DNA of 64,000 bases from assembly GCA_964016885.1 (NCBI GenBank), contig OZ024740.1:391840001-391904000 (forward strand), written 5' to 3'. This document shows positions 1-31,887 of this stretch, one piece after another; the first letter of the stretch is position 1, and each line of letters begins with the position of its first letter. The stretch is from Eledone cirrhosa (lineage: Eukaryota). The position numbers were made by a program, and so were the translations under genes. Below the pieces are notes generated by a model, which was not told where the DNA came from, searched no databases, and was given only the letters and a program-made list of their open reading frames with translations.

Positions 1-714
1 ATGTTCTAAAATACAGCTCTTTCGTTTTACTTTATTCAACTGTAGTTAGGCATTGATACTATTGAATACACTGGCAGTAAGTAAAGTCAGCTATTTCAAC
101 CAGTTAACAGGCATTTATAGTATGGACTCTAACATTGAAAGCTTTGCATGTCCAAAAAATATCGCATCTGTATAAATACATGGGTAGAGTGTTGACACAA
201 GTGGTGGAGAAGAAGAGTAGTTGTATTATGATATAGTGCTCAGTGACACTTTGTTCTATGTTCAGATATTACTATTTTCATTTTCATTGATCTGTATCTT
301 ACTCAAACTAATCCCCACTCACACAACTGATACTCTGTAGTTAAAATAAATTATTGCATTATAAAATGATTTGACAGAAACTGTTGAATGCAAAGCTGAA
401 TACTTTCCGATATCTAATTGCACATATCCCCGTTCTAATGTTAAACTCTGCCACAGATGATGTCACATTTCATTTCTCAACAGACACAAAGATATTCAAT
501 CCTCTGGATTATATATACCTTATCTGATGCAATATATAACCTTTGAGTTAGTAAACATAAATCAATATTGATATAACCAATGTAACGAATATTATGAAAA
601 TAGTCATGGTCCGGGTCCGTGATAAATTTTCAATACACGGTTGAAAAAATTTCATTTGAACTATATAGCTGATATTGCTAAAAGCATTGTGCTTAGTCAG
701 GTTGTGATATTATT

Positions 715-875
715 TATTTTAGCCATGACCATATCGACATTTCACACATAGTTTATCTTAGATGACATTATCAATTATCCTTCCCTTTTTTTAGTAACAT
801 GATGTAACTTGAAGATTTAACTGGGTTAATTTATAAGATCAACATACCTTTGTGTAGCTCCCTTGTTGGCTTATC
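715..875 (-). mobile_element. Decayed copy of an older interspersed repeat (SINE-like); related copies at ~17370-17600 and ~18105-18275 (+)
   Basis: Loosely shared motifs between the three loci (e.g. aacaagg(g/a)agc, aaatagc..aaatc, ctaaa(c)aac); boundaries approximate. Confidence 0.35.
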
Positions 876-1461
876 CTATATATAGATTGAAGATTTTCAT
901 TTATTTTATAGAATTAGTCAAATGAGTATCCAATACTCAAGAGTAGTAAAATCAAAAGTTTTTATTTTGTCCACGAAAGGTTCCAAATACAAATAGTTCT
1001 TCGGTGGACGTCTATTCACATCTACTGAGGAAAAATATTAACGTTGATATGAAAATCAATGAATTCAGAATTTTCTGTTCTGCATCGGTCAAAGCTAAAA
1101 GCAATAAATATGATAGTAAGAACAATCAGAAGAAACTTTACTGGTCATAACGCAGACACTACTGTTAGTTTACACAAGTCACCTTTAAATTTCAAGCGTG
1201 GGCCATTTTTAGAATGACCTATACTCAGAATATATTTGTTTTGTAACAAATCTAAGGCCTTCAATTATACTTTGACCCGCTCACCTGACTTCAAGATTCA
1301 TTTAGTCATTTCCAACACTTTCTTTTCATTATTTTTTCTAATTGTCCTATCTGTTTCTCCTTATTCCATTTTTAACGACTCATTCTATATTTCTTACTCA
1401 TTATAGATTATCCATCTTCATACGAACTAAAAATTTCTAACAGAATATTATTTGCATGTGG

Positions 1462-1463
<2 letters not shown>

Positions 1464-1531
<68 letters not shown>

Positions 1532-1570
1532 ACATGCGTATGTTCGTGTATATATAAATGTATGTAAAAA

Positions 1571-1638
<68 letters not shown>

Positions 1639-1643
1639 CAAAG

Positions 1644-1680
<37 letters not shown>
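1464..1680. repeat. Compound microsatellite (TG)n/(TA)n/(GA)n
   Basis: Directly visible dinucleotide tracts; they explain the poly-CV/HT/YI/RE ORFs. Confidence 0.95.
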
Positions 1681-1682
<2 letters not shown>

Positions 1683-3484
1683 TTATTATTTATATTGCTC
1701 CCAGTTACCTGGTGCAGACGTACAATTGTTAAACTGCATATCAGCTTAACCGCCTAAGTTACAAAAGTCAAAAGTCAATAGTTCCTTCTTACTTCGACTA
1801 ATTGATTAAAACCTCAGCTCAAAGTCACAAAATTATAGGGAATGCGTTTATTCAGTAGAGCCGATTTCGGTACTTATGAACTTCAAATTGCGCTAGATCA
1901 AATATGCATTCAGAATTCCATTAGCAGTTTTGCATGACTAAAACAATGCACAATAACGTCTGTAAAGACATCAACAGATTACCAATAATTATTTATATAT
2001 GAACTACGATCTACATATGTAAATGCTCTCATAGAGCATTGAACTTTAAAAAATTAGTATGCACGTCATTTAAGAGGAATGTTTGTTTCTTGAACAACAC
2101 ATAAATACAAATGATTATAGTATTTACATGGGAAATAATGGAATCGTTATTAATGTCTTTTCTAACTTGTTTTACGTGAGTAAAATCACCAAACTTTACT
2201 ATATTTATATTACATATGTTATATGAAACCTCCCACTAGGCACTATTCATAGAACCTCACATATTCTGGATTGTCTTGTGGATTATACCTACATGACAAA
2301 CTACACACGCTCACTGTCAATTAACTTTTCCAAATGATACAGTCTCAGTGTATATCTACATATAATCTACACAGAGGGTGTTGATCAATGTAATGCATAC
2401 AATTAGTGAAAGAACAAACGTTCTCATTTAATCAGAGTTGGCAATATTTCACGGAAATATTTATCATCTCCTTCCAAACTTTCATAGAAAGCGTTATTTC
2501 AACCCATTTCTGCGTAGCCTCATCTTAGTTCCTATCCAACTGGAGGACTGGACTTAGCCAAACGGAACCATCGATCTAGAGTCAGACAATTCATCACCCC
2601 AGGTAAGAAGGTGTAGTGGTGCGAGCCCACCTACTTGTCCTGCTTAATGTATGCTCATGTTACCACCTTATTTTCCTTCACTATAGCATCGCCCCTCTCA
2701 ATGTCTGATGTTTTTGAAACCATCACCATGACGTGCTCCGCATGTTCCGACATATCTTTCTTACATCTCAATCAGAACAGGATGCCTATCAACAGCAGTG
2801 GCTCAAGAGTCAAATATATAGGAGGGCCGACTGAAACATTCATAGGCTGACTATGAAGAGATGTTGCTAGAGTTGTGAAATCTTGTATGCATTAATTTCA
2901 ACTCTTCTTAGTGATGACTGCATTGTTTCTTTCTGGGATCTATGTTGAAAAATAAACCTCAATCGGTCATTCCATATGAGTATCTTGGTCAGCCTATGAA
3001 CTTTTCAGTCGACCCTCGTAGAAGATGATAATCGACACATTGACGGGCCAAGTGTGTCGAACGAAATGGTGATAATTTGTCCGATCTTCGATCAAATGCC
3101 GACGTACTTTGAAGCGACTTGCTTCTAAATTAGGTAGCATTCGGGACAGCCACTAGATAGCGATGAGCAGCACAGTCAAACACTTTAGACCGATCTGATT
3201 TAATTTGAGTCCCATTAAAAACCAGGCTTACTATCCATCTTGTCTACAATGTATAGCATGCGATTGAGATTGTTGTCGAGAAAAAATATTTTCAGAACGA
3301 AAATGATACTGTACATACTCATATGAATCTAATGATGTATGCACCTGTCACTTCTGATGGAGTGGTAAGCGTGCCTCGGTATTTCAAAACTTAACGGTGC
3401 CGATTCTTTCTTCAGGTCTAAACATAGCCGATTTCTTCCACAGAGAAAAGAGAAAGGATTAAGAGAAAAAATATAGACGAAGAA

Positions 3485-3600
3485 TCGATCCCAGTACTAT
3501 ACCAGTAATATTTTTATCGACCTCGAAAGAATGAAAGGCAAAGTTGACCTCGGCGTGATTTAATCTCAGGGAGCGCAAATAACCAGAATGAATACCGCAA
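3485..3600 (-). mobile_element. Degenerate fragment of the tRNA-derived SINE
   Basis: ttttatcgacctcgaaagaatgaaaggcaaagttgacctcggcg matches the SINE core seen in about 12 other copies. Confidence 0.75.
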
Positions 3601-3639
3601 AACATTGTTAATTCACTGCTTAATGTAATGATAGTGGTT

Positions 3640-3970
3640 AATAAAGACATAGCTTAAGACTATGGTAAAAGAAGGGGCCTGGTGATGGCATGGATTGACT
3701 ATCAGAAAGGTTTTGACGGTGATCCCCAGTATGAAATTCTGAAAACATTACTCATTATAGTACCGGTAAGAAGCAGGTACTTTAAATACTCTGTGAGTAA
3801 TAACATTTTATATACAATAACAAAAGATGGAATTATATATATAAAACCTGTACTTATAAGACGAACATCCTGAAGTAGCATTAACATCTTTTAGCAACAT
3901 GGTAAATCACATTGTAACCGATACAAGTTATATAGGATGGCAATTAATCATCTATGTATAGATAACCTTT
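3640..3970 (+). mobile_element. R4/Dong-like LINE reverse transcriptase remnant
   Basis: Translation MAWIDYQKGFD matches the AWIDYxKAFD RT motif; downstream INHLCIDNL resembles INHLLYMDDLK; many disablements. Confidence 0.55.
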
Positions 3971-4028
3971 AGCTATGTAGTGCTGACGGCTGTGTACACA
4001 AGATACATATATGCGCATAAAAACCTAA

Positions 4029-4065
<37 letters not shown>

Positions 4066-4789
4066 CATAGATATATTTATGTATATACACATGCACACAC
4101 ATATATTTTCATGCACATACATACACATATAAATATATATACATAGGACCGCCCATATACACGTACCAATACAAATATACATACATATATACACTTAAAA
4201 ATATGTGCACATATGTAAATACATGCCTACACACAAACATATAGATATGAATATGAATATACAAGTTCCAATGCATACATATATGCGATGGGCGGGTGGG
4301 TCTGTGGATGAAAGCCTACAACCGACGTGGCACAAGATGCCACTTATGTACTACTGAAAAACTAAATATCCGAGCCTTATCAACTAACATCATGAACTCT
4401 CGGTAGGAAAGATTGTCCTCCTACTAACACAACCATATCTACTCACTGGACAGTACACTGGATATCACACTACCCCACGGATTACCCACCAGATAACGAG
4501 GTGTACTTGATTTTGTAAATGTCGGAAGACCCCATGCTCAACCTCACCCTACCTCGGCTAGACTCTATATCTCGACAACTACTGCCAACCTCTAAGCCTC
4601 ACTAACTGCGGGTAACCCAGCACCAAGAACAATCTGTTTCATATATTTCACATCTCTTATGTGTTATGTCATATGTGTATATGTTACATGTGTTATATTA
4701 TATTCCATAATTCCATATTCTATGACCTCCACCATTCTTATAGTCATCTAATCCTTATATTCTATTTTATTTCATGTTATGTTTAGCGT

Positions 4790-5150
4790 CGAACATTCTG
4801 CGTCGTGGCATAGAGTTATGGCCCGTTACGTTGTGAGTTCAAATCAGCCGAGGTTAGCTTTGTCTTTCATCCTTACAAGTTCGATAAAATAAAACACCAG
4901 TAATGCACTGGGGTCGATTTAATCGACTTTCCTCCAAATAGCTGGTGTTGTGCCTAAAGTAGAAACAATTATTATTTTGGCTGTATCGGTAGAGGCTTTG
5001 CAGCATAGAGTTACGCCCCTTTACGGTCTGAGTTAAAATCTCGCCGAGGTTAACTTTGCCTTTAATCCTTACGGGGTCGATGAAATAAAGTACCAGTAAT
5101 GCACTGGGATAATTGCTGGCCTTGTACCAAAAATAGAACAATTATTATTA
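4790..5150 (+). mobile_element. Two tandem copies of the tRNA-derived SINE (~4790-4975 and ~4977-5150)
   Basis: B-box-like gagttcaaatc, core gaggttaactttgcctttcatccttacggggtcgataaaataaagtaccag, 3' end tagaaacaattatt. Confidence 0.9.
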
Positions 5151-5954
5151 TAATTTTTCAATTTTTTTATTTTATCTTATTTTATTCTTTAATTTTAGAT
5201 TATCTAATTTTCACTTTCTTTTCTTCCATTTTGACATTTTTGTCATCTTTCCAACTTTTCAACTTTTCACCTTCCATTTCCACTTTCTCATTTTTCATCT
5301 TTTCAGCCTTTTCCTTTTCCTTACTTCTTTTATTCCTCATACCTTATATCTTATATTAGCCTGCCATCCACACCACCCTGCCATAACCACTACCATCATC
5401 ATATATAATTCCATGATATGTGTATTTCCATAATCTCCTCTATATCTCCATAAGTTATATTTATACCTCATATATCTTATATATCTTACATATTTACTTA
5501 ACACCAATACCACTCCACTACCACTCATCATAGCTTCCACCATCACCATTATCATACATTCAACTACCCTTAGATATCACAGCTCTATTCTTCATATTCT
5601 ATAATTGCATATTCCCATAAGTTTTTGAATATTTTTTATATATTTTCTCGTACGTCTTTTTATATGTATGTTTATATCTACATATTTATTTACACATATG
5701 TAAGCACCTGCGTATGTATATTTAGGATTTATATGTACGTTTTATATGCATGCATATTTATGTATTTGTGTGTACATGTGCAATTGTATACATATATATA
5801 TTCTATCCACCACTTCATCCTGCCAATCCACCAATCTTTTCACTACCCCAATACACCCACCATCACATTCATCACCTGACTCACTATTTAACCTTAATAA
5901 TATGAATATTAAAACTCTACTTCGGTATTGAGTACTCCGTCAACCACACACGGG

Positions 5955-6109
<155 letters not shown>

Positions 6110-6366
6110 ACAGCGATGAATTAGTTTTGCGAGGTTTTTTATATGAAATCGTGTGTCGAAACAAATATTGTTATACTTGGGGAGGGTCATATTTGTGTAA
6201 TATTGCCAGAATTAATAACAGAACACGCTCACTGTTTGGTTGGTTTTCGCTTTTCGCTTCTGTGTCTTTTATATCGGTAATCTAATTTATTCGGTCCTCA
6301 ATGTTGCCATTGACTGACCAACGGTCAAAAATAATACAGATACAATATAGACACAAACACATATAT

Positions 6367-6420
6367 ATAGTTTATCAAAGTTCTTTCGTTGCACATCTGC
6401 AACATCGTCAGTGGTGCTAT
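6367..6420 (-). ncRNA. Type I hammerhead ribozyme motif in the PLE 3' region
   Basis: Minus strand CUGACGA-U-GUUGCA(GAUG)UGCAAC-GAAA-GAACUU; perfect 6-bp stem II, weak stem I. Confidence 0.65.
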
Positions 6421-6680
6421 TGTTTACTCCCGTTACATTGTATTTTCTACGCCATCTTTATTTAGTCTGTTTATATATTTATTTATTTGTTTATTTTATT
6501 TTGTCTTCTTTGCGCATGCGTTTGCGTGTGTGTATAGTGTTTTGTTTGATGTGTGTTCGTGATTGGGTGACTGTGTATTGGTTAATGTATTCTATCTTTA
6601 CTAGTGTGTGTTTATATGTGTTTGTTGTTATTGTGCTTGTGTATGTATTTATCTATTTATTTATCTATTTATTTATTTAT

Positions 6681-7787
6681 TTATACTTCTCTTAGGTCAG
6701 TGTTGTTTGTTTGGGTGTTGTTGTTATTCCATTCATTCTTTCTGTTTAGCCTTGGCCTTCTAAGTTCTATTTCACTGGCCTCTCTGATTTGCCTATCTGC
6801 TGGGTCATTTCTATGTTTAGATATTATTCTAATTTCTATGTTGTCTATGTTACCGTCGTGTTGTTGTCTGGCATGTTCGTATAGTACTGAACCGTTTTTT
6901 CGTCCTTTTAGTTCCCCCCAGTGTTGGTCTATCCTTTCACCTATGCTACGAGCTGTCTCGCCTATGTATGTTGTTGTCATGTTTCTGCAAGTACCCTCTG
7001 TGCTATAGACTACGTTTCTAGTTTTACAGTTTATCCGGGGGTTTACCTTACATATGATACATTTCTTATTAGTATAGTGGATTTTCTTAAAATGGTAGGT
7101 TTTGCTGATCAGGGATTTTATGGTGGTTCCTGGCTTTTCTACCACCTTAATCTTTAAGTGGGTCTTTCTCAGGGCCTTTCTACACTGGTTAGCTAATTTC
7201 CCTCCAGGAGTAGTGTCCACAAACATGACACTCTGGTATCTCTGGTTGTCGTACCATGAGGTGGCTTTCCTTATCTTATGTCTAGCCCTATCTAAGCTAT
7301 TCCATGATTTGCTCCTGTATAATGGGCAAATTCCTTTCATGTCCAGTTCTATGAAGGTCTTATACTTCTCCGTGGCTCCTTCGTATACTCTGACTGTCTC
7401 TTTGGTTGTAGCCAGAGAACTGCATGCGGTTGATGAAGTGTTGGATGTGTCTTTCCATTTCTGTTGGGTCGCACATGCGGGACACATTCTTCATCACTCG
7501 TATCAAACCTGCGATCAGAATATTAAACTTAGCACTACTGGACATTGCTGAGTTTTTGAGTATCAGTTATTTGGAGGCCATGGGTTTAGCATAGTGTGAG
7601 TGGAGAATTTGGGCTCTCTCGTCTATAGTGTTAATCCAGAGTTCCGTGTCTAATACAGGTAGTCTATTGTTAGGGTGTTTGGAAGGGTAGTCGATAGTTA
7701 CAGTTATACTCTGGTGTATGGAATTAGCTATCTGCTGGATGCTTTCCATTGTGCTACGTTCTAAATCAAACTTATTAGTGCTCTCTA
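6681..7787 (-). pseudogene. Disrupted PLE ORF (RT C-terminus plus GIY-YIG endonuclease)
   Basis: ORF pieces 7567-7787 and 6681-7487 in different frames with stops; GIY-YIG motif clear. Confidence 0.8.
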
Positions 7788-7872
7788 GCGAAAATCGAAA
7801 ACCAACCAAACAGTGAGTGTGTTCTGTTATTAATTCTGGCAATATTACACAAATATGACCCTCCCCAAGTAT

Positions 7873-7931
<59 letters not shown>

Positions 7932-7932
<1 letters not shown>

Positions 7933-7993
7933 CTGTAGGATGCTGCTACTAAACAATACAATACAAAAGAAAAGCCAGGAGAATTTGAAACCA
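7932..7993 (-). repeat. ~60-bp element terminus between (TA)n tracts; second copy at 11392-11453 (+)
   Basis: Reverse complement of tggtttcaaattctcctggcttttcttttgtattgtattgtttagtagcagcgtcctacagt; both copies abut (TA)n. Confidence 0.8.
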
Positions 7994-8005
7994 TATATAT
8001 ATATA

Positions 8006-8118
8006 TAATTGTTTCTATTTTTAGGCACAAGGCCAGCAATAACCCAGTACATTACTGGTACTTTATTTTACCGACTCCGTAAGGATGAAAGGCAAAGTTA
8101 ACCTCGGCGGGATTTGAA

Positions 8119-8121
<3 letters not shown>
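8006..8121 (-). mobile_element. tRNA-derived SINE fragment (3' half)
   Basis: aattgtttcta..ggcacaaggccagcaat..actggtactttattttaccgactccgtaaggatgaaaggcaaagttaacctcggcgggatttgaactc. Confidence 0.9.
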
Positions 8122-8153
<32 letters not shown>

Positions 8154-8230
8154 ATGGTGGTGCCCCAGCAAAGCCTCATCCTGTGGGCTGGAACACGTAA
8201 TAGAGTAATAGAGTAATAGAGTATATACAC

Positions 8231-8310
<80 letters not shown>

Positions 8311-8460
8311 TGGGTGTATATACAAATATACACTGTATATTGATGTACAATGATAATATGGGTTACCTCGCTATCAAAGAAAAATATTTTTTCGGAAAGA
8401 AAAAATTATTTTTCTCGATTTTTCTTCGTGAACATGCCATAGATCTTTCAGTACGGTCGA

Positions 8461-8517
8461 GAATGCCAGACAGTGCTGCTTCAAGATTTGTTAATCTTTC
8501 ATCAGTGAAACTCATTC
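8461..8517 (-). ncRNA. Type I hammerhead ribozyme motif (minus polarity)
   Basis: GAAUGAGUUUCA-CUGAUGA-AAGAUU(AACA)AAUCUU-GAAG-CAG(CA)CUG-UC/UGGCAUUC: stems I-III all pair, GUC cleavage triplet; GAAG instead of canonical GAAA. Confidence 0.7.
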
Positions 8518-8557
8518 AACGGTTACTGTCAAGGAAATAGACCAGCGTTTACATAGA

Positions 8558-8627
8558 ATTTCGCCTGATGAACATTTGCTGGGGATGCTCATTTGCATAT
8601 AGCAAATAGAAAACATCGAGAGGAAAT
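8558..8627 (+). ncRNA. Type I hammerhead ribozyme motif (plus polarity, degenerate stem III)
   Basis: AUUUCGC-CUGAUGA-AC-AUUUGCU..AUGC(UCAUUU)GCAU..AGCAAAU-A-GAAA-ACAUC/GAGAGGAAAU; 7-bp stem II, partial stem I. Confidence 0.5.
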
Positions 8628-11457
8628 AGTCATTTTCTGGTTATAATTAATTGACAGTAACACTAACACACAATTGAAGCATAATTGGGGCGTATATGAA
8701 AACACATATATGTATATGTACAATAAATATATGAGTAGCCTCGGTATCAAAGAAAAATAATTTTCGTAACGAAAAAATTATTTTTCTCTATTTTTCTCTG
8801 TGAATATGTTTATTATATATAAAAATATAGCATATGATTTCATATACACTCCTACTATGTTTAAATGCTGTCTCAGTATTTCTGCCAATTAATTATAACC
8901 AGACAAGTTCGCACTATATGCCAAAAAGCTTTTGAAATATGTTCGACCGTCAGAAGATTAAAACTACCTACTTTGAATCTACTGCATAGTGTCCATTCCT
9001 TCTCTAAAATATATTCCATACTGTTGATAGTATATTTAATAGCTGATAATTCATATCTGTGTATGAACGAACTATTTATTCCAGTTTTCATTTGCTTCAC
9101 CTGAAGAGAAAGAGGGGGAGATACACGGTGAGGTCGAAAAGAGTGAAAAAGTAAAAAGAAAGGGGAAAAGACCGTGTTCATTTGCGTCCTTTATTGGCAT
9201 ATTTCTGCATGTGTATATGTGTGTGTGAATAAATGTTTCAAGGAGGAATGGGAATTTGCATAGTGCAATCAATTACCCACTAAGCAACCTTCAGACTTTT
9301 CATTGCATTTTCACATCTAAGCGAATATTCAAACTAAATTATCGTAACATAACACAACTAATGAACCGAGATCCTATAACTCTGGAAAGTGGTGCGTAGT
9401 AGCTACAGCAAGCAATAGCAGATAGGTGAAACAGCAGCAGTAGCAGCGGCAACAATAGCAGCAATGACAGTAGCAGCGGCGACATTAACAGCAGCGACAG
9501 TAGCAATAAAAGTATTAGCTGCAACATAATTTCTGGTGATTCAGTTATCACAGTTGTGGTATGGAGTACCCAGTGTTATTAATGAGGCAGAAATGTATTT
9601 AGAGCTCTAGAAAATTGTTATTGTTGTTATTGTGGTTACTGTAGAAAAGAAATCAGGCAAGAAAATTGATGTCGCCGGGACTAATGTGACCATTTTCTTT
9701 CGATACTCTTGAGAAAAGTTGACAGCTTTTATCGAGTTAAGTTACAAAGATTGATGTGTGAGCTGATGACCTAAGCTTTTCAAAGAAAGTAAGGGTTAGG
9801 AAAGTAAGCTCAGTGGTTTCACCATCTAATATGTTGTTCGGATAGTTTGAATCACAGGTGTTACGATAATGCCATTAGTATTTCTTCTGTAGTTTGTGAA
9901 ATACCTCTTCCTTTGTACATGAAGTTAGACCATCGAAGATCATGAGGTCCGCACAACATACCAAAGAAACACTCTCAAATCGTTACACCAGTGTTTAACA
10001 ACAACTACTCAGTATTTTTTCTGGCAGAATATATCAAGGACTGCATTATTCAATGTATCTTTCGTTTTTTTAAACGGGCGGGTGTGGTTTGCTATTTCTT
10101 ATGTGTCACAATACTTTTTAGAGGCATCCCCTTCCCAATTAGTCGAAATAAATATTATAAAGTGTATTGAAGCAGAATTGCAACACCAACAGACGATTGT
10201 CAACTGTGACGCTCCGAGCGAGCCTACATCATCTGTTTCCACTGAGGCCACCAGTGGAATATACTGACATGCAATAAAATAATTTTGACTATATATAAAA
10301 GGCAACATGCCTTTTAAACCGGTGCTACTAGAAGGAGCGGTGATTTAATCGGGGTGGGTTGAATATAATTTGAGCAGATTGAGAGATCCAGAACAAGTGA
10401 TTTACCAACCTCACTGAGAGAACTCAGCTGATCTCGTTAACTGATTCATATCCTAAGATTTTGTGAAAGCAAGTCTTCTCAGACATCATTCTTGCAGAAT
10501 AGATATGTTTTCTGAAACTCTGCTATATGGGTCCCAATTTAACTGTGTTTATTAAACAGATTTTTAAATGTTATTTTCGGTGTTTCTATGACAAGAAGTA
10601 TAACTTATATTCGCATGTTTGAGAGATAGCTGAGTTCTCTAGTTATGTCCAGATACTTTTCAACCCTGACTCTTTCTTCCATTTCAAATTCCATAACAAA
10701 TTCCCTGACCTAACATTTGTTATATTGTCACTGTCATGATCATAGCAAATCAATTTGCACAGAGAAAAGCAACAATGAAATATAATAATAAAATTTTGTT
10801 TGTGATAACACTTTTTTAGCCAAATGTCTAGGTAAACATCTAGTTGCATCCTTTTCTTAACCTGTCATGCCTTCATTTGTATTTTTGTATTATCTTGCTG
10901 CATATAATCAATACATTATTGATGCTTTCTTACCTTGACACACACACTATCCTTCTAGCCTGTGTCAGATTTTGCTTTAATGGGGTTTGGGCTTATCCAC
11001 ATATTACATTCAAATTACATATTAGGTTTGCCTTCAAAACTTCAATCTTTTCTATCCATTCCCCAATATCTCCTGTGTTTTTTTTAAAAATATTATTTTG
11101 CTAATGATCTTTCTCTCTATACATATAAAGCTTCCCATTTTTTCTTTAAAAATATCTCTCTAGCCATATGATTACCAACTGTTCTATGTTTGTTAGATTG
11201 GCCTTCTTGACTTCTAGGTATATACAGTTTATTAACTCTGCTTCTTCCGTGTAACTTATTTTGCATTGTTTGCACAGTTTTCTTGAGCAGCTATCCATTT
11301 CATCCAGTTTATATTTCTTCTATTCATGAAAAGCTGCAGAATATTTTAATATTGATATTGATCTATTTAATGATGTTCCTTCCACTTAGTTTGGTTTCAA
11401 ATTCTCCTGGCTTTTCTTTTGTATTGTATTGTTTAGTAGCAGCGTCCTACAGTGCGC

Positions 11458-11560
<103 letters not shown>

Positions 11561-11569
11561 AACGAGTTT

Positions 11570-11975
11570 CCTATCATTTGAAGGTTAAGATCTTCGATAC
11601 TTACACCCTACAGTTGTGTTATATGGTCTTGACTGTGTTAATTGGACGACAAAGTCACTTCAGAAGCTCTTTACATTCCAGAACCACATCATGAGACTTA
11701 TGACTGGCAAGCGGCTCAGCGACTGTATCTGTACCAGTGAGCTGCTCAACATTACGAAACTTAGACCAATTACATCAATTATCAAGTCAAGAGTACTCAA
11801 ACTATACGGTCATATAAAAAGATAAATTCGTGGTGTGAGTAGGTTATGCCTGGAAGGAAGGTTGACTGGTTATAGAAACAGAAGCCGGAAGCCAAAACGA
11901 TGGCTTCATAATGTCAACTTATGGACTGGACTTGATCTTTGCTGCTGGTGATCGAACTTTGTGGAGAAAATTACC
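11570..11975 (+). mobile_element. RTE-like LINE 3' remnant
   Basis: KVKIFDTY..YGLDC..FQNHIMRLMTG..SRVLKLYGHIKR..LEGRLTG.RNRSRKPKRW..DRTLWRK, typical of a post-RT C-terminus. Confidence 0.7.
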
Positions 11976-12113
11976 TCATGTTGAGGTAATTTTAGCGTCA
12001 AAGTAGTATATATATATATACATATATATATATACTAAGCTACCATTACACCAACACATCACCCATCTCTCTCCATTCAAATTAGAAACTACATTCTTAG
12101 CGAGTTTAAATGG

Positions 12114-12220
12114 CAAGTAAGTATGTTTAGAAACAGTGAGCAGGTAAAGGAATTTTAGCCTGATAATGGGGTTTAGAACCCTCAGATAAATGGAAAAAGA
12201 TGAGTATTGACGTACATGGA
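12114..12220. repeat. Element terminus abutting (TA)n; longer copy at 45425-45566
   Basis: Shared caagtaagtatgttt.gaaacagtgagcaggt and aaaggaattttagcctgataatggggtttagaaccctcagataaatggaaaa..gatgagtattgacgta. Confidence 0.8.
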
Positions 12221-13124
12221 ATATATATATATATATATACATTCATTTATTATGGATATTTGTGAGCTTTGTTACTCTAAAGAAGTAAGGATTCATTTCA
12301 TATTTTTCGGTAGCCGTTCTATTTTTAACGTACTGTTTTCTCAATATATAAAAAATCTTAACAAGTGCAGCAATTGCTAACATTGGTTCTGACTAAAGAA
12401 CGTTAAAATCGCCAAGCATGTGTTGGAAAATTTACTGACTGAATATCTCTGGGCTGGAGCCATCTTGAATTGGATCATTAAGGGCAAAACAACTTTTATT
12501 GTGTAAGAGAAAGACAAATAGGCCGTATTGTCAAGCTACAGATCAATAACATCTATTCTATTATTATGGAAACTGTTAAGAGGTATATTTACAGATAATT
12601 TTTGTACGTCCTAGGAGGGCGAGCAGAGGTGAACAGAAAGTATGCCGGAGAAAGTTAAAGGCACAAATGTCCAGCTGGTAAATAACAAGATGATAAGAAA
12701 CGGTAAATGAAGATAAACTGGTTTAGTATTGGATCCGTGACAAGGAAGCATATGATATGATCTCCCACAATTAGATTGTGTGGACATATACAATGTTAAA
12801 ATGTGCAGGTGATATCATGATAAAAGTAAGTATGGTTGGAGTGAGAAAAGGATGTAACAGTAGAGGGACACTCACCTGGAAGTGATAAACCAGATTGGGG
12901 AATTTTCCAAGGTGATAACTTATTACCCCTATGGTTTGTCATTGTTTTCATATCATTCTCCTTGGAATTGAGAAAAGTAAAAGCCAAATAGGAAGGAGTT
13001 AACTATATGTTATTCATGGCTGACCTATAGCTGTATGGCAAGGTAAGAGAAAACTGGATACTCTTGTCAGTTTGGGAGGAGTGTTTAACAACGGTATCAG
13101 AATAGAGTTTATTATTTCCAAATA

Positions 13125-13342
13125 AGGGCGGTGGATTGGCTGTATCGGTAGAGCGTCGGACTCCTTGCTTTGCAGCATACACTTATGGTCCTTCATGATC
13201 TGAGTTCAAATCACGCCGAGGTTAACTTTTATCCTTTCATCCTTACGGTGTCGATAAAATAAAGTACCAGTCACGCACTGGGATAGATTTAATTGACTTT
13301 CCCTCGTCCAAAATTGATGGCCTCGTGCCTATATAATAAACC
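13125..13342 (+). mobile_element. Full-length tRNA-derived SINE with 14-bp target-site duplication
   Basis: A-box-like tggctgtatcggt, B-box gagttcaaatc; TSD attatttccaaata at 13111-13124 and 13343-13356. Confidence 0.92.
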
Positions 13343-13376
13343 ATTATTTCCAAATATGAACTCTGTGATGAAGAAA

Positions 13377-14147
13377 TCTGTATATATATAAAATTAAGTA
13401 TGTGTGTGTGTGTGTGCGTCTCTGTGTCTGTGTATTACCTATAGGGGCTTACATCTTACGACCGATTTCCATGAAACTTTACAGGCTCATAGATTAGTCA
13501 TCGGGGAATGTTTTCTATATATCAGCGTATCGTTTTTTTTTTATTCCGGGGTCATTCTGCAGATAAAATTCGATAGGGGTGTCACTTTTTTTAGGTATCG
13601 AAAAATAAGATTTTTGGCTCTAGCTCCCACATTTTGCCACCTATTTCGTTCAAATTTTGAAGCAAAATAGAATTTATCATTGCACATCCTGTAATGGCTT
13701 TATATTTTGCATTTGTTGTTCAGGAACGGCGTGGGAGCTGCTTAAATATTCGAAAATACCACCTTTTCGCTCAAATTTCCGCCTTTTCGGCTCTAGCTCC
13801 CACATTTTTCAACCGATTTCGTTCAAATTCGAAACTTCGGCTCAACCTCACACATAAATCAATTTATTTTGTTCAACTTTTATACTACGATAGAACCTAT
13901 CATTGCACAGCTTATAGTAGCTTTAAACTTTCCCTTTTTTGTTCAGGGACGGCGTGGCAACCGTTTAACTCTTCAAAATACGATTTTTTCCACCTCCCAC
14001 ATAATCCATACGATTTCACTCAACATTTCGCCATTTGCTTCACCTTACGACCTATTTTCAAGAAACTTGCAGTCGCTAAGATCAACACCTTTTCATCAAA
14101 GCAGATATTATTTTACCTACCCAGGCAACGCTGGGTACTGCTGCTAG
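13377..14147 (+). mobile_element. Non-autonomous Helitron
   Basis: 5' TC after host A; 3' CTAG before host T; subterminal hairpin tacccag-gcaacg-ctgggta (14118-14137); internal tandem duplication (~13612-13740 / ~13785-13960); no TSD. Confidence 0.85.
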
Positions 14148-17100
14148 TAAGAAATATAATAAAAATGATTGAAAAATCTACCGAACGAACAGGATACTAA
14201 TGTTGGATATAAATATGAGTGTTTGAAGTTGCTTGTATAAAGGGTGGAATGATGAAATACCAAATGAGAAGGGAAATATTTCCAAGATATAGAGAGACTA
14301 AACCTTACTGCGCAGGCTCAAACAATCGGAACGAAATACATCAGAAAAAAATTAATCTCTTCAGCATATAGAATGTGTGATGAAAGATACGAGACTGTGG
14401 TGCTCGGAGTTTCAGAATGCTCAAGCGTTATAAGAATTGGAGACATGACAAAGTTGCCGCAATCTTACATTGGCAAACTTGTAATCCGTTTGGTTTGAGC
14501 GTGTTTGTATTGGCACCTGTGTTTATACCTGTCTTTATAATCTTGGTTGTGGTGGTATTGGTGGTGGTGGTAGTGGTAGTGGTGGTTTTGGTCGTGGTTG
14601 TATATATGCGCGTATTTTGTTGATATTTCTTTATTTATGTTGACATTTGATGATGTGGTTGTATATGTATGCGTATACATATTAGAGTAGTTCTTCTTGT
14701 TAATTCCTTGTTAATTAGAGTAGTTCTTCTTGTTAATTCCTGACAATATGGTAGCTAGATTTTCAGTACTATAACTACCTTTTACAGTATTTTTGCTAAA
14801 ATGTTTATGGTATGTATGTTAATTAAAGAAATACTTATTCATAAGGTTTAGGGGTTTTTTCGCTATGTTAAAGACAACATTTTGACTAAAAGATGGTTTC
14901 AACCAATTAATTTTCCTACTTTTATTTCTTTTTGTACCGATACTGCCAATCCCTTTTAATATGAATAATATTAAGTATTAAACATTTAAAAACTAATTTG
15001 AGATCGTAAAAGAACAATCACGCCACTGACGAGATTTGGTCCTTATAAATTATGTCAATGTGTGATATAACCTATATTGTTGACGTCTACACGAGTCTCG
15101 GTTAGCTATTGGCAATGCATTTCTAGCATAGCACATCATTCACAAAGTGATTTAAAGAGTTAAACAACTACATTCTAAATAGAAAACTACTTGAAAGTTG
15201 TATTAAATTATAATCATGAAGTGTATAGAGGTTATGGAAATCATTTTGATTCGAAAGGTAAAAGTCACTATCAGAAGACAGACGATGGCAGAATGCAACA
15301 GTCATGATCACGCAGAAGTTTTAATGTCAGACAGCATAAGAGAGAAGGATGCGGTTAAAGAAAACATACACTCGTATTCTTAACGAGGGGTGATGTATTA
15401 GAGACATTAAGAAGATAAGTCAGCGTTTCAAGTAAGTAACGAAGAGAAACCAGAAGCGAAATTAAGATTAATGCGAAGAAACAGTGCTGTACATAAGAAA
15501 TATAAAATAAAAATAGAGATGTGTAATGAGAAAACATGTGAGGTGGGGATAAGGGTTTCCTTACTCTAAGTACAGAAACTGATTAATGTGAGGAAATGAG
15601 TTTGTTTAGTGCATGTTTTCCCCATGTAATCAAATGAATTGAATCATAAAGTAAAACCATTCGATAACTTAGATGTAGCAGTGAATTGTTCTTACGCTGC
15701 TATAACTATTTACTACAAAGAAGCTAAAGCCATTTGAGAATTAAATCTCTAGAACACGGAAACAGCACAATGCCTGTGATAGTGTATGAACTACTGATCT
15801 TTTTAATAAATTCCGGTAACTACATCGACTCGGTCAAAGGCGCTCAACTGGTTTTGTTTTAATTTTTGTACCTATCATTTATCTGAAAATTAATTATTTT
15901 TTCAAAACAAACTGGTATCATTATTCTAAATCACCAGTGAACTACTACCCAACAGAGGACCTGCCTTATATTTTAGTTAGAGATATTAAAGCTATAGAAT
16001 TGAGTGAATTGTTACCTGAAAGTTTTCATGTAATCATTTTCGTTATTAAATCTCGGTTCTTCGCCATAAAACAAAATAGTAGCTGTTTTCTAGTTCCTTT
16101 GTATTCCATATTTTTTAATATAGTAATATTCAATTTTCCATCTCTACGTCAAAAAATAAACATTTAAAAAATACAGCAACAAGTTTTTGCTACGATCAAA
16201 AGCTATTTAATTAACTAATGTTTTGTTAATCAATCAAACTGTTTATTTTCTTTCAAAGGATTAATCATCTGCGGTTCTCTTGGGTCACTTTTATCTCATT
16301 GCCAAAAAAGTCAGACTAATTGATGAAAAAATAGGTGATTTAAAAATATAATTTCATAATCTCATTTAAATTTGAACGTTGTAGCTTCTTGTCGAATCAA
16401 GGTTCTGTCATTCATATAAACCTAAAATAAAAATAAAAGTTGCAACAAATAAGATGTTGAGATTTTCATATCATCTAATTTTAAATCTCAATGGGGTGTG
16501 ATATGTTAAATCAGTCAATAGAATTTTAGAATTTATTGATGTTATCGCGGAAGACATTATGTCAATTGAATGTGAAAATTATGCTATCTCGTTATTAATT
16601 TAAGAAGCAATGATTTACAGTATCCTTCAACAGAAGTTGGATATAGAATTAGTTATTTTTATTTTTATTGTTATTGTATTTCTAACATAGTGAGATAAAG
16701 AAAGAAAAATGGCCTACAGCTTAATGTCTTATCCCAACGGCAAGGTTTATTTTGATGTGCTTTTCGTTGAGATGTTAAGCATTACAAGAGGATAATATAT
16801 GAGAAAAGTAAAATAATGTATTTGTGAACTGAACAATACAACTATTTGAATAACGAGACTGTTCGTAAGTGTTATGAAGAAAATATTTTACATATGGATT
16901 TTCTGGGTAAATAGTCTAAACGTTGATAAGGTAATGTAATAGTAGGAAGTGTTATATAAAGACAAAACCTATTTAACTACTGAAAACCAAATCGGAATTT
17001 TTATCTTTCAGTCCTTGACTTCATGGTTCTGCACAAAAATTGAAACTCGTTTTTTGAGGAGGACAAAAACGATATGTTAAATGATATAAACCAAGTTTCC

Positions 17101-19660
17101 ATTATTTAAGTGCAAATGCTATAGTTTAAAGACAAATGGCTCTTTGTTTATTAACATGTATAAACTCCGTACTTTTAACCTTGTGAAACAAAGCATTTAG
17201 ATTTTTCAAAATATACCAATATTATTTTTTAACTTAGAAACAAGCACCACAAGGAAAATGATAAATAAAGAGATGTCGATTCCAGTTTAAGCCATAGTAA
17301 TTTATGCCACGAATAACTTTGAAATAGATATCGAAAATAGAGCACACGAGTCAATGAAAAACTAATGAGGAAGCTTTTAATCAGTCACTCAATCTTGTAA
17401 AAATAGCACTACAATGAACCTTAAATCACACATTATGTAGCTCCTTAGTTTGATTTGGCCATGACAGCCCCAAGGCCATGCTGTAGCACTATATAAGATA
17501 GTCGCAGATATAATATGTCAAAATAAAGATGGGAGAGATACGGTTAGAACACCATTGATAATAGTTCAAATTGATCGGGCTGAGCTTTGGTTAAACAACA
17601 TCAGCTGCATAATAAATAACCATTTTTCCTTCACCTAAAATATATTTTTCCGAGTCAATAGTAAGTAATATTTTTATACATTTGAAAATACAGGTCCTTG
17701 TAAGGCTTACTAATAACATACTATATTGTATCTATTCTTGGGTGAAGCCACATCACTTAATCTGCACGAATAATGCCGATATCATAAACATTAACATTGC
17801 GATTTTACCATTTTCTCATTGTCAACAATTATGAGTTATTGCGAATAGGACAAATATCGTAATATCATCAATGCATAACCTGAGAATATAACGGTATAGT
17901 AAATTATGGTGAATGTAGAAAGAAGACTTGAAAACACTGCTAAAGTGCTACGACCTCACGAATTGTAACAGGATCAGATTTGCAGCTAATAAATAATCGG
18001 GTGTCTCTTCTGGACGTCACATATATACTTAGATCGTTGTAGATATGAATTGAATCTAAATTTCTGCTAATAATGCCCGAATTAGAGAAGCAAATATGTG
18101 AAGTTAACAAGGAAGCCTCTACATCATAGTTCAGTTAGATAGAAATAGCTGTCAAATCTCCCTTAAAATATACACTACTGTTTGAATAATATACACCTAG
18201 ATAAACAACACCCGGGGGAAGAGCAAATTAGTCGTAGCTGGATTTTGCTTTGATCATCTTAGGGCTAAACAACAACTCATACAGTCTAGTTAGAAGGCTT
18301 TTTTCAACAAACTTCCTACTGAGATTAAGTGTATACTGCTCCACACCACAGCCAATGACGTTTTCCTTTATATATATGTAAAAATAACTTATGGTACACG
18401 ACGATATCAAAGTATGTAAAAAATAACTGATGAGAGCATGATATAATCTAGTTCCTGGACACGTACTCTTATTAATTTTGGATTTTAATTCAAAACATTT
18501 TTCATGACAATAATGTATGGTGAAGGGCATAATTTCTCTTTGTCGCTGATTGTCAAAACACAACCATTTTACGGGTGTAAATGAATGCTGATAAGAGACC
18601 CAGACCTAAGTCAAAGGTTGCGATATACGAGATTTGAAGAGAGTCTAAGATTAGTAGCTCTAAAAGCTTCAAGTTATATATCTATCATTAATCTAAAACC
18701 AATCTTCACGACAACACTATGTTTTTATGAATATCATAATTTTATTATTATCTTTAAATAAAACTAGATGATTTAAATCTTGCGACAACTCTTCGACAAT
18801 AAATGCCAGTTGACCATTCCAAGAACCGCCAATTGAATGCTTCTATAGAATGCCATTACAGTTTGATCGAATCTAGGGGACAGCAACTAGATGGTAAACT
18901 TTAACTGCTGTCTGATCTAACACCCGAACATAACGCGTGGATGCATTTAGTGGAGTCCACGTTTTGGGAAGCATTTGAACCAGGTCCATCATCTAAGCAT
19001 ACTATCCTACTTCCTCCCTCCCATCTCAAGGTAAATTATGAACGCTACTCTTCTTCCTATATATATATGTATAATTTAAGAAAACATACTATATAATATA
19101 ATTAACTATAAATAATTAATAATTCTGATTCAATGTTTTCTTGTATATGTTTATATTCCTTGTACATTTAAAACAGAATGTGAAGGAGTTTAGATAACAA
19201 ACAATAATCAGAAATTCTCTCCTACTCCCATATGCTCAAAGACCAAGTGAAAATGTGATGTTCAACAAGCCTACAGTTAACCAGTCTTTCATTACTTTAT
19301 GTTCAACTAAATAGTAATAAATTACTATATTGAATGTGTTTTGTAATATCAAATTCAAAACCTGCAGTGCAATCGATAGTTTAAGAATTAGATTAAATTT
19401 CAAAGCAAAATTGATTTTAGTTCATTTATAAGAATTAGAATTCTATTATCTTTTGCATTATACTTATCTGTATGGAATAAAGTTTGTATTCCAATAGTTC
19501 CCACCGACTTTTTTCTGCCTTGGCATCATATGCTTTCAGTGTGACATAATAGTTAAGATATTAACCAATGAAAGTTGTTAGCATCAACGACGACAACAAT
19601 GTTCATAATAAAAACATCACAAAGAATAAATGCACCACCTCTTCTGTAGTATATTTGCAG

Positions 19661-20449
<789 letters not shown>

Positions 20450-20704
20450 ATAATAACGATGAAGACAATGATAATAACGATGAAGACAATGATAATAATA
20501 TGACGACTACTCTTAATACTAAGTGGAGGTCTACAATAATGAAAAAATATTTGTTCCTGCTAACTTTTGCGGTATTTTCTAAGCTCCAATATTTCAGTAA
20601 AATAAAACATGGACGGAATACGCCCTCTCACGTTGAACGAGCTATCACGTGACAGCAGCTCAAACGTTAAGATGACTAACACCGTCCCCACCACTACCAC
20701 CTTT

Positions 20705-22258
20705 TAGATGATCGGCACCGCTCTCAAGGAGTACAAGGTGATGACAGGAGCAAAGATTAAACAGGAAAGGTCGGGGCACCTGCAGCTCGGAACCTGGAGA
20801 GGCAGGTCCATGCCGTTAAGCAGCGTGTCGGGCGCTGGACGAAAGAACCGGTTAAATTACTAGGGGTCTTGTTTGGTCCGGACCTCCAAATGTACAGAAG
20901 CTGGGACGAGGTGACGAGCAGTGTGGCCTCTCTCACTCAGAAATGGGCTGAGAGGAAGTTGTCCCTGAAAGGTCGGGTGGACGTGGCGAACGCGTACATC
21001 GTGTCAGTCATCTACTACCGCCTGGCCGTTGTGCCAAATTCTAAGACTCACCTGACTGCACTGGAGCGTTTGTTCCTTCGCTTTTTGTGGAAGGGACACG
21101 CTCCAGTGGTCAGGCGGTCCATCTGCTGTCAATTCCCACTAGAAGGAAAGCTGGGCATGTCGTCGCTAATGATGCCTAAACATGCGATGAGGCTACATCT
21201 CCAGATCTTCCTTAATGATAAACAGGTGCGGTCGCCGTTTGCTAGACGCGTTTTACCCCAGACCATCTACTTGTCCGAGCTGCAGTCCTGAGTCAAGCGA
21301 AGACCGAGAGGGGCGCTTGGAGACTGGAATGTCTTTAGGTGCTCACAGCCCTCGACCAATCGGGCGATGGGATCAGTGGAAACTCCACCTTGGCGTACTA
21401 TAGAGGAAAAGAACGACGACATCCTTGGGGAGACCCTGGGCGTCAATCAACTAGCCAATCTCTTCCGGAAATCTTTCGAGCCGGGGCCCATGGACAATTT
21501 CCAGAAATCCCTGGTCTGGCAGTGTTACCGAGGAGCCTTTCCAGTTCGGTATAAACTCAAAAAGCATGGAAGTGCCGTCTACCGGACCTGTCCGAGATGC
21601 GTGCAGGGCGACGAAACCATCATGCATGCACTCGTCGAATGTCCGAGCATTGCTGACTTGTGGGTTTATATTGAACACCTACTATCAGGTGTAGGACGGA
21701 TATGGTTATCAGATGTGTCCATCGTTAAGACTGCCTTGCCGTCTTCCTTTAGGGGGGAAGGGCAGGCAGTTTTTATCTGCCCGGTGGCCATGGTGAAAGA
21801 GGTTGTCTGGTGGACACGTTTGAAAGGGTTGAAGACGAGCACTTACCTCTTCGGCGAAGTCCTGATTAACTTTTTAAAATTTCATTTGAAAAGGAAAATC
21901 AGGGTAGAGAGGGAAGTGCTCCCTTTCGAACAATTTGTTGAATGATAGGTGAGCGAGGCGAGCATGGTCCGACTGAATGGGCCTGCTCTATGTATGCGCC
22001 TGTAGATTGGAGGTGAAAAACTGGGAGAGCGCACTTGCCCTAATGGTCAAGGTCACCGTGGCTTTTTGGGGGCTTTCTCCACGACTGACCATCGGAGGTC
22101 TCCCCCCTATTGGGGAATTTTCCTTTGTTTCATTTTTTGTTACATCCTTTGTTTTTATTTTATGTTTTTGTTTTATGTTTACACGCAGAAACGCCCATTT
22201 GTACCGCTCTGTGCTGTCCTTAGGTTTTGTGTCAATACTCGTGGTTAATAAAGAAAAC
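20705..22258 (+). mobile_element. 5'-truncated Tx1-clade LINE (ORF2 C-terminus and 3' UTR) ending in (ATT/ATC)n
   Basis: FGPDLQ..WAERKLSLKGR..YYRLAVVP; CCHC CPRC..ETIMHALVEC; homologous to the 28-44 kb elements; ends gtggttaataaagaaaac-attattattatc. Confidence 0.9.
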
Positions 22259-28234: not shown

Positions 28235-28449
28235 TTTCTTTATTTACCATAAAGGCATACAAAGAAGGGACGAATACAAAGGGGGAGTTTACATATAATC
28301 GAGTAAAAAGGGTGTAACATGAAAATAATCGAAAATAACCTCAAAAGGGAGGGGACGTGATGGGGGTTGCACACACCCCCGAAAAAGTGTGCAATCCTTT
28401 GCCCGGGGAGCACGTGGAGAAGGTGCTCCCCTCTCCTTTACTTCTCTAC

Positions 28450-31400
28450 CTACAGGATGGTATACAGAGAAGGCCCATTTACACGAGCCATTCTCGCCAC
28501 TATCACCCACATTTCATAAAACTGCCTGTGGCCAAGCACCTCTCTCTCCATTCTTATCCTTCTTCCGAAGTGATATCGGAAGAAGTAGACCAGACTATGG
28601 CCAGAGAGGAAGTTGCCTGACCTCAGACCTTTCAATCGTGTCCACCAAACAACCTCTTTCAACATGGCTATTACGCACAGAAAAACCGCCTTTACTTCCT
28701 TTGTGAAGAGGGGAGGCGGTTTGATTGTCATCACGGACTCGGCGGTCAATTTAATCGGCGCCACCCGCGACAGCAGTCGTTCGGCGTAGCCCCACAGATC
28801 AGCCACGCCCGGACATTGCACCAATGCGTGCGCAACAGTTTCTTCGTGACGCACGCATCTAGGGCAAATCTTTTTTGAGGGATCCCTGCCCGGGCGCCCG
28901 TGTCTGTAGAGCCTCTCTCGAACGGGTAGAGCCCCCCGGTAGCACTGCCAGGCCAGTGACTTCTGGAAGTTGTCCATTGGTCCTGGGCCGAAAGTCCAAC
29001 CTAACAGGCTGGCCAGTTCGTCCTCTTCCATGTCCAGCGACTCTCCAAGGGTGTCATCGCCCCTGCTAGCCACCAGCCCTCTATAGAATGATGAGGTGGA
29101 TTCTCCACCGATGGCCTGGCCCGCTTGCCAGAGAGCCCTGAGCGCCTGAGCACACTCAGTGTGCCAGTCTCCCAGTTTTCCGGATCTTTTCTTGACCCAG
29201 GACTGTAGCTCGGTGAGCGAGACGAGTCTCGGAAAGGCCCGTTTCACGAATGGAGCCCACACCGGTTGACCAGTGAGGAATACCTGTAGGTGCCGTAGCC
29301 TTAATGCGTGCCTACGCATCATCAACCACGGCATCCCCAGCCCTCCTTTCGAAGGTTGTTTGGTAGCAGATGGATCTTCTCACCATAGGAGGGCGCTTCT
29401 TCCAAAGAAATTGGAAGAGCATGCGTTCCATGGTGGTGAGTGTTTCCTTAGGGCAAGGCACGACAGTCAGGCGGTAGTAAGTGACGGACGCTATGTAAAT
29501 GTTCGCCACCTCCGCCCGGCCTTTTAGGGACAGCTTACACTTGGCCCATTTCTGGGTTAGTGCAAACACCTTGTTCGTAACCTCGTTCCAGTTCTTTTCC
29601 ACCTGGAGGTCCGGTCCAAACCAGACCCCAAGCAACTTTACCGGGCCCTCCGTCCAGTGTCCGACGACACCGTCAGGAGGCATCGGTCTGCCTCTCCACG
29701 TTCCGAGTTGCAGCCCGATGGATTTTTCCCGGTTCAGTTTCGCTCCTGACAACCTTTCGTACTCCTCCAGTAAGGTACCGATCGCCTCGATCTCCGAGTC
29801 GGTCGATACCATTACTGTTACGTCATCAGCGTAGGCCGACACCGCTTTGCTCAATCCTGGTTCCAGGCGGATACCCTGCAACAACTCCAACTTCCTCAGT
29901 AAAGGCTCGAGAGTCAATACGTACAGAAGGGAGGAGAGAGGGCACCCCTGTCGAATGGATCGTGTGATTTCGAACGGCTTCGAAAGGTAGCCGTTCACCT
30001 TGATCCTAGAACAGATGTGGTTGCTATGTAAGGCAGTGATCCAGCCTCTGAAAACAGGACCGAACTCAGCCGCCGCTAGCACCGCATCCAGGTAACCATG
30101 GTCGACCCTATCGAAGGCCTTAGACTGATCCAAGTTGATCAGGGCCCCACCGAAGCCGGGTTTGTTGCCAACCCTCTCTATGATGTATCGCATGAGGTGG
30201 AGGTTATCGTGAATGGACCTGGATGGGATAGCACATGTCTGCGCATCTCCCACCAGGCCACCCACGACAAGCGCCAACCTCTTTGCTAACACCTTGGCCA
30301 AAATCTTTAACTCTGTGTTTAGCAGGGTTATGGGCCGAACATTATTTATACTATCTCCCTTGTTCTCGTCCTTCCTCACCAGCGTGACTACGCCCTTGGC
30401 TACAGAACAAGGAATTCTCCCGTTATGCTGCCAATTGCAGTAGACTGCTTCGAGGAGTTCGGAGAAGAAGACCGGCATTGCTAAATAAAGTTCGTAAGGT
30501 ATACCATCGAGACCTGGAGATTTGCGTCTGCTGCATTGGCTCAGCGCATCTCCGATCTCATCAGCCGAGATTGGTCCCTCGCAGGACTCTGCCTCTTCGC
30601 TCGAGAGACGCGGCAGGCCGTTGAGGTATGGACCGAAATCCACGTCCCCGCCCGGACCCTCGCCTCCCCCGAACAATCGGGCAAAGTGCCTTTGAAAGGC
30701 CTCGCACATCTGCTTAGGCTCCCGAATCACCCGTCCATCTTCGTCTTGCAACGACCGGATGGTGGATCGATTTCCACTCTTAGCTTCTGTCACGCGGGCC
30801 CAGCCCACGGCTTTGGCCCCCTCATTACCTAGAGCACGTATTTTACTTCGAATGACGCAGCCTTCGGCTTTGCATCGAAAAACTGGTTCAAGGCCGTCCT
30901 CGATGCCAGCACTCTGGCCACATCTTCGCTCTTGATTGCCTCTTCTAATTTACCTGTTAATTCTTTCTCGTTTCTATTCCTATAGGCAGCTAACATCTTG
31001 CTATAACTTATTGATTCTGTTCTAACCTCTCTTTTGAGAGATGCCCACAATCGGTTGTTGACGATTGCACCCGTCAACCTCTCCTTAACTAATCTGCTAA
31101 TCCGGTTTCTGTAAGTCTCTTTTGCCGGTAAAGACAAATTAAGTTTCTAGTAACCGGGACCCTGTTTATGTGTTTTCTCGAGATTGACTACGCAGGTCAC
31201 TAATTTGTGATCCGTGTAGCCAACCGTGCGCATTTCTGGACAGCTTAATATGTCCCTATCCTTACTTCTAACTAAGAATCTATCTAAGTACGATCTAGAT
31301 TGACCACTGTGATTTCTCCAAGTCCAGGTAGGCACAGTTGGAAAATTTAGTCGATATCTATCGACCAAGTTAAAACGGTCGAGTAACCCCTTGAGGATGT

Positions 31401-31887
31401 TACACCCCCCTCTATTAGGACATGCTCCTGCATAGTCCCAACGTGCATCTAGGATGTCATTCCAATCCCCCGCTAGAAGCAGGGAACGCGACGTTCCCAG
31501 AAAAGTCTCCAAACGCTGGAAGAAGTCGGGCCGTTCAGCTCAGAAAGGGGAGTAGACGATGACCAGTCTCAAGGCCGCACCTTCACTACTGCCAACGTCT
31601 AGCACCAACAAACGACCCTCCGGGTCCGAGTGCACAACCTGTACGGCAAGACCCAGGTGTTTTTGCAGCAGTACGACAACCCCACCCCCACCTCTAGGTT
31701 GACAGAGAGATGCATGCACCTCAAAGTCATCGAAGGTGGGGGCCAGCTGCCGCACGACGCTGATTCGAGTCTCACAGATAACCATTACATTTATACTACA
31801 TGACCTGAGGTCATTTAGAAGCTTTGCTTGCTTCCAAGTTGAGCCCAGGCCACGTGCATTCAAACATCCTACTCGTAACACATCCAT
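28450..31887 (-). pseudogene. Copy A ORF2 (APE endonuclease-RT-CCHC), broken into 5 pieces
   Basis: ORFs 31540-31887, 31147-31512, 30829-31137, 29312-30808 and 28450-29334 are colinear with copy C ORF2. Confidence 0.93.

Follow-up and report, generated by a model that had tools for sequence, protein, structure and literature searches.

The element at positions 8312-8933 of the window (the whole 64,000-nt stretch of the Eledone cirrhosa genome that was analyzed) is very probably a decayed copy of an old, protein-free repeat family with a 394-nt unit, which carries a type I hammerhead ribozyme on one strand, belongs to the non-LTR retrozymes, and was likely inserted by a Penelope-like route. 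The family is regarded as a previously undescribed, dead member of the metazoan non-LTR retrozymes. No description of it was found in a literature search, and related units might be listed in the supplements of PMC7229834 and of a recent preprint (bioRxiv 10.64898/2026.07.22.740005). The features of the window copy are listed in Table 1.

Table 1. Features of the retrozyme element in the window (positions of the whole 64,000-nt stretch).
Feature	Position	Strand	Remarks
Retrozyme element	8312-8933		two opposed arms
Main arm	8312-8809	-	about 1.3 units of the 394-nt family unit
Inverted second arm	8803-8933	+	unit positions 110-239; 86% identity, E 8e-42
Partial-tandem overlap	8686-8808		second copy of 8311-8436
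(TA)n(TG)n microsatellite	8234-8310		adjoins 3' end of the element
Type I hammerhead, extended stem I	8446-8531	-	core CUGAUGA 8505-8499; predicted inactive
Hammerhead stem II	8498-8483	-	6 bp
Hammerhead GAAG	8482-8479	-	GAAA in the family
Hammerhead stem III	8478-8470	-	
GUC site	8471-8469	-	predicted cut between 8469 and 8468
Pseudo-hammerhead	8565-8612	+	CUGAUGA 8565-8571, GAAA 8609-8612
Hairpin of the plus motif	8574-8580/8601-8607	+	7 bp
Nested near-miss (a)	8426-8553	+	seen in the family majority; further decayed in the window copy
Octamer motif	8591-8598		one of two in a 25-nt internal direct repeat; second lost in the window copy

Counting from the cleavage site, the main arm runs from a 5' end near unit position 33 (8809) to a 3' end at position 158 (8312), and is 83% identical to the family majority. 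An earlier note on this DNA had described a direct repeat of about 1.3 units, which was borne out by 99 identical columns out of 126 between 8311-8436 and 8686-8808 (blastn 78%, E 2e-23). The unit of about 374 nt given there holds as the period of the window copy, whereas the majority unit of the family has 394 nt; likewise, the limits given (8311-8808) enclose the repeat but overlook the inverted arm, which is joined 5'-to-5' to the main arm and extends the element to 8933. This right arm stops at unit position 239, outside both of the 3' end clusters that characterize the family (see below). No ORF of 120 aa or more was found at 8311-8933, and the adjoining (TA)n(TG)n tract was likely the insertion target. 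The view of the element as a decayed, more-than-unit-length copy of a small hammerhead-bearing RNA is supported.

Several other repeats were observed in the window. A decayed Penelope-like element occupies 5955-7880 on the minus strand, with ORF pieces at 7570-7800 and 6684-7490, inverted repeats of 94 nt (6165-6258 and 7787-7880), and a minimal hammerhead-like motif near 6411 (minus strand); the terminal 343 nt of this element are found again, in an inverted pair, at 54710-55146. A short, abundant SINE-like repeat (8005-8121), also present in at least 10 other places of the window, lies between this element and the retrozyme. An 855-aa open frame at 47646-50213 (plus strand) has a Penelope-like look and no Pfam match, and Pfam assigned no family to three Penelope-like ORF pieces. 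A type I hammerhead-like motif is present at 46243-46310 (plus strand), with a CUGAUGA motif on the opposite strand at 46843. The regions 20700-22000 and 28300-44100 contain several LINE-like elements, which are nested and have frames for endonuclease and reverse transcriptase in both orientations.

At the level of the family, the minus-strand motif has the order of a type I hammerhead, with CUGANGA, GAAA, NUH, and stems I-III. A structural descriptor matched the family majority once, on the minus strand (stems 8/6/3), with no match on the plus strand, and among 53 individual copies it matched 8 on the minus strand and none on the plus strand. In these 53 rows, which were chosen by similarity alone after leaving out rows aligning over less than 90 nt, CUGANGA was preserved in 33, GAAA in 45, NUH in 45, and all three in 24. 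Among 26 hand-picked copies, 90.6% of 805 cells of the minus fold are paired and 7 of 31 pairs show two-sided change; the covariation score was matched by none of 500 shuffles, a control that ignores relatedness, the two-sided changes being essentially two subfamily events in outer stem I. Four pairs alternate between A-U and G-U when read as minus and become mismatches when read as plus, pairing being observed in 69 vs. 46 of 74, 66 vs. 37 of 72, 63 vs. 23 of 71, and 66 vs. 44 of 74 copies for the minus and plus readings, respectively. Self-complementarity extends over 10 nt of the stem III segment (8 nt in a subfamily with a 2-nt deletion), so that the family hammerhead may possibly cut both as a dimer and as a monomer whose stem III is short; cleavage as a dimer has been described for amphibian retrozymes (PMC7229834).

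The window copy of this ribozyme had been called well formed. It does have CUGAUGA, the 6-bp stem II, a short stem III, and the GUC site, but it carries a G at A15.1 (GAAG), the only such case among the 53 rows, as well as a U-C mismatch at the fourth pair of stem I, and is predicted to be inactive because of these two changes. The descriptor detected a hammerhead on neither strand of the window copy, and Rfam cmscan of 1-20000 and 8300-8950 (the latter at E up to 10) gave no hammerhead family, as expected for a broken copy.

The family was characterized in the 3.0-Gb assembly of the same genome. The first search gave at least 96 matches, with 40 scored among 1310 first-look candidates, and 99 distinct loci were obtained after pooling the genome searches by similarity and by exact pattern and removing duplicates. 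Three subfamilies can be distinguished, and in one variant an internal direct repeat is shortened by 41 nt. Identity to the majority averages 84% (range 74-90%) over 74 core rows, on which basis the family is considered old. An exact 32-nt core pattern had 52 matches in the genome; since only 5 of them were among the 53 similarity-picked rows, the family likely has several hundred copies or more. A young, intact subfamily was sought and rejected: none was found in 28 loci chosen by an intact 32-nt core, whose best-arm identity was 67-93%. The longest arm of the family loci has 729 nt, which is below two units, and no multimeric arrays were seen among them. The predicted fold of the majority circle reaches -117.7 kcal/mol (z about -10.8 against 60 shuffles), with 69% paired.

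Two further observations were made among the loci collected. At one of them (L082, positions 585-1300), 17 copies of a 42-nt sequence form a tandem array, which stems from positions 120-163 at the 3' end of the unit. In addition, 18 loci with Rfam Hammerhead_1 matches (L116-L133) represent a separate family, which is younger and whose copies end either in (TA)n or in a tail. Two of its members (L131 and L132) form an opposed pair about 200 nt apart; the 394-nt unit showed no similarity to these 18 loci.

The insertion ends of the 99 main arms, read in ribozyme sense with distances counted past the cut site, follow a distinct geometry. The 3' ends of 68 arms fall in two clusters about 38 nt apart (32 at 150-171 and 36 at 182-204, with modes near 165 and 203), and 5' ends are scattered (2 and 8 in the same two bins). 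Forty arms are longer than one unit, and a dinucleotide run adjoins 43 of the 68 clustered 3' ends. Opposed arms are joined 5'-to-5' in 28 pairs and 3'-to-3' in one; in 9 of the 12 pairs with both ends clustered, one end is short and the other long, which is at most suggestive. According to PMC8557442 and PMC11167929, the signature of Penelope-like elements consists of 5' truncation, partial tandem, a 5' inverted copy, an optional 30-40 bp tail, and microsatellite bias, and the tail corresponds to two reverse-transcription start sites (PMC11167929). The insertion pattern of the family matches this signature, including the optional tail. On the basis of this geometry, mobilization by a Penelope-like enzyme, which the earlier note had named as a possibility, is likely. 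The 394-nt unit has no similarity to the Penelope-like elements of the window; no partner with shared ends was found among these or the 18 Hammerhead_1 loci, and Penelope-like coding pieces are present in only 4 of the 99 loci, the window included.

The same geometry, wholly Penelope-like and with all arms below two units, has also been considered under the assumption that the unit is a detached pLTR or an internally deleted autonomous Penelope-like element, which was copied from a linear transcript and never formed circles. Retrozymes are reportedly related to pLTRs (bioRxiv 10.64898/2026.07.22.740005), and insertion in vitro did not require cleavage (PMC11167929). Nevertheless, such an origin appears improbable: the copies wrap round a 394-nt period without an ORF, matches between copies in the 5' flank reveal no visible link to a coding region, the stems of the family ribozyme are full-length, unlike those of the minimal form, and self-pairing is strong throughout the unit. 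It overlaps with the retrozyme explanation and differs from it in origin and circularity only.

With regard to a non-LTR retrozyme, the following course of events may be proposed. The family unit was likely transcribed, is predicted to have cut itself, and was possibly circularized. A borrowed Penelope-like reverse transcriptase/endonuclease likely pasted copies into microsatellites, using as template either a more-than-unit transcript or a circle. Reverse transcription would have had two alternative start sites, located about 160 and 200 nt beyond the cut; it would have run round more than one unit, stopped variably, and often laid down a second, opposed arm.

A different claim concerns a second hammerhead on the plus strand. 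In the window copy, CUGAUGA, a 7-bp hairpin, and GAAA are indeed present on this strand, yet the best stem I for the plus core has 2 bp, and no hammerhead arrangement on the circularized window unit uses the core at 8565. The C3 place of the plus motif is occupied by G in 28 of the 53 rows, A in 17, T in 5, a gap in 2, and C in 1, the window itself, a base mix that corresponds to CpG decay. Accordingly, plus-strand CUGANGA occurs in the window alone among the 53 rows, and not on the majority plus strand. When the C and G forms of this place were searched in the genome as exact 18-nt strings, 2 and 23 matches were found, respectively. Across 98 aligned segments of the 99 loci, a set that includes pattern-picked loci, the plus C was present in 3, which have different subfamily backgrounds, whereas the true C3 of the minus ribozyme was retained in 99 of 110. 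A C3G change abolishes hammerhead cleavage according to PMC11167929. Even with C3 left free, the descriptor matched none of the 53 copies on the plus strand. The 3' strand of the plus hairpin pairs equally well with a nearer repeat, and no two-sided change was seen in this hairpin among common pair types. A form with G3 and C8 swapped (GUGAACA) was detected in 31 plus-strand segments.

The earlier note had read the element as a copy of a circular RNA able to cleave itself on both strands, which would imply that both ribozymes were active while the family spread. The window copy invites this reading by displaying CUGAUGA, a hairpin, and GAAA (GAAG on the minus strand) in both polarities. It is almost certainly wrong: the family majority has G at the plus C3 place, C being confined to a single row of the 53 and to 2 of the 25 exact matches, the plus motif has neither a stem I nor two-sided changes, and no copy passes the descriptor on this strand. 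The consensus lacks the plus ribozyme in all three subfamilies, an observation that the note itself had named as speaking against its interpretation. A strongly self-paired RNA yields hairpins on both strands, and a single G-to-C change supplying the plus C3 has very probably produced the look-alike in the window.

The two cores had also been described as mutually complementary and able to pair into a hairpin arm. The complementarity is real over 8 nt, but pairing into an arm is not predicted, with core-core probabilities of 0.001 (plus circle) and about 0.08 (minus circle) for the window unit and 0.000 for the majority. Other roles or sources of the plus motif were rejected as well. For an antisense lock on the ribozyme, a pairing probability of 0.000 was calculated, and imposing such a lock on the majority circle requires about 28 kcal/mol; PMC7229834 describes free hammerhead cores for most circles of animal retrozymes. 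An ancient inverted duplication finds no detectable homology between the plus and minus motifs, as 491 of 2000 shuffles score as high, and a plus hammerhead in scrambled order fails since there is no CUGANGA on the majority plus strand.

A weaker version of the two-polarity idea assigns the second ribozyme to the family's ancestor. This would have been a viroid-like circle, with hammerheads of both polarities that overlapped, and might have been captured in an animal germ line by Penelope-like retrotransposition; the antisense ribozyme would then have been lost while the subfamilies had not yet separated, leaving a near-miss that overlaps the minus ribozyme. A search of the majority circle in which one edit of the core was tolerated and loop length was unrestricted yielded two candidates. 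Near-miss (a) has a core lacking A6, together with GAAA, AUA, and stems 4/7/5; its 7-bp stem surrounds the antisense of the true ribozyme, and it includes a 5-bp hairpin. Near-miss (b) is a type III-like arrangement at the 8565 site; its stems are 7/7/3, and its core contains an additional G. They score 28 and 25, respectively, compared to 32 for the true ribozyme. A score of 28 was reached by 1 of 400 structure-keeping random circles, and none of 6 reversed or letter-swapped real circles scored above 12; with the real strand and permuted motifs, 28 was reached by 10 of 300 and 25 by 14 of 300 (3-5% of controls), and the scoring had been devised after the motifs had been seen. Moreover, the core of (a) is intact in none of 77 copies, and subfamily changes break it through loss of G12 and G-G and A-C mismatches. 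That of (b) is intact in 3 of 98 aligned segments with differing subfamily backgrounds, and this motif is possible only with UUU as the site, three additional bases at the junction, and a loop spanning about 68 nt; no two-sided change was seen in it. The absence of detectable homology between the plus and minus motifs also counts against an ancestor of this kind. A long-dead second ribozyme in the family is thus borderline and unlikely, and its derivation from a captured two-polarity circle is judged quite improbable. If true, such a fossil would connect two-polarity RNA replicons directly with animal retrozymes and bear on the origin of viroid-like RNAs.

Octamer motifs are found in the family unit at positions 224 and 265, about 130-170 nt upstream of the cut site, and the 41-nt deletion variant is missing one of the two octamer-bearing repeats. 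An octamer is reportedly an element of the promoter of newt satellite 2. This promoter has been described as snRNA-type (PMC2220036, citing earlier work), and retrozymes seem to be without promoters according to a review (PMC7761336). By analogy, the unit octamers might possibly represent an snRNA-type promoter element.

Metazoan non-LTR retrozymes have been described in mussel (350-390 bp), coral, axolotl, and newt, as satellite 2 (PMC7229834). The 394-nt family resembles them in its features, with circles and cleavage being predictions here: both have a non-coding unit of 150-450 bp with low GC and many copies, one type I hammerhead with a short stem III, co-occurrence with Penelope-like elements, and a highly self-paired predicted circle whose core is not blocked by an antisense stretch. 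In contrast to the tandem arrays of metazoan retrozymes, its copies are dispersed, below two units, old, and decayed. With endonuclease-bearing Penelope-like elements and their non-autonomous derivatives, as described in PMC8557442, PMC11167929, and bioRxiv 10.64898/2026.07.22.740005, the family shares 5' truncation, partial tandem, a 5' inverted arm, a pair of 3' ends separated by about 38 nt, insertion into microsatellites, and a hammerhead near the 3' end; unlike the autonomous elements, it has no ORF. Two-polarity viroid-like and retroviroid-like RNAs are similar in size range and self-paired fold, but they have working hammerheads on both strands, whereas this family has one, is a genomic repeat, and carries the insertion signature of a retroelement. 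The likeness to viroids and retroviroids drawn in the earlier note does not hold, as intact cores in both polarities, three covarying stems for each, and core-core pairing were all lacking. No two-polarity animal retrozyme was found described in the literature search.

These results remove a false claim of a two-polarity element and illustrate that one point change in a self-paired retrozyme copy can mimic a second ribozyme. The route by which retrozymes are mobilized has been argued in the preprint from co-occurrence and phylogeny (bioRxiv 10.64898/2026.07.22.740005). An old family with a Penelope-like footprint at its insertion ends provides support for this route.
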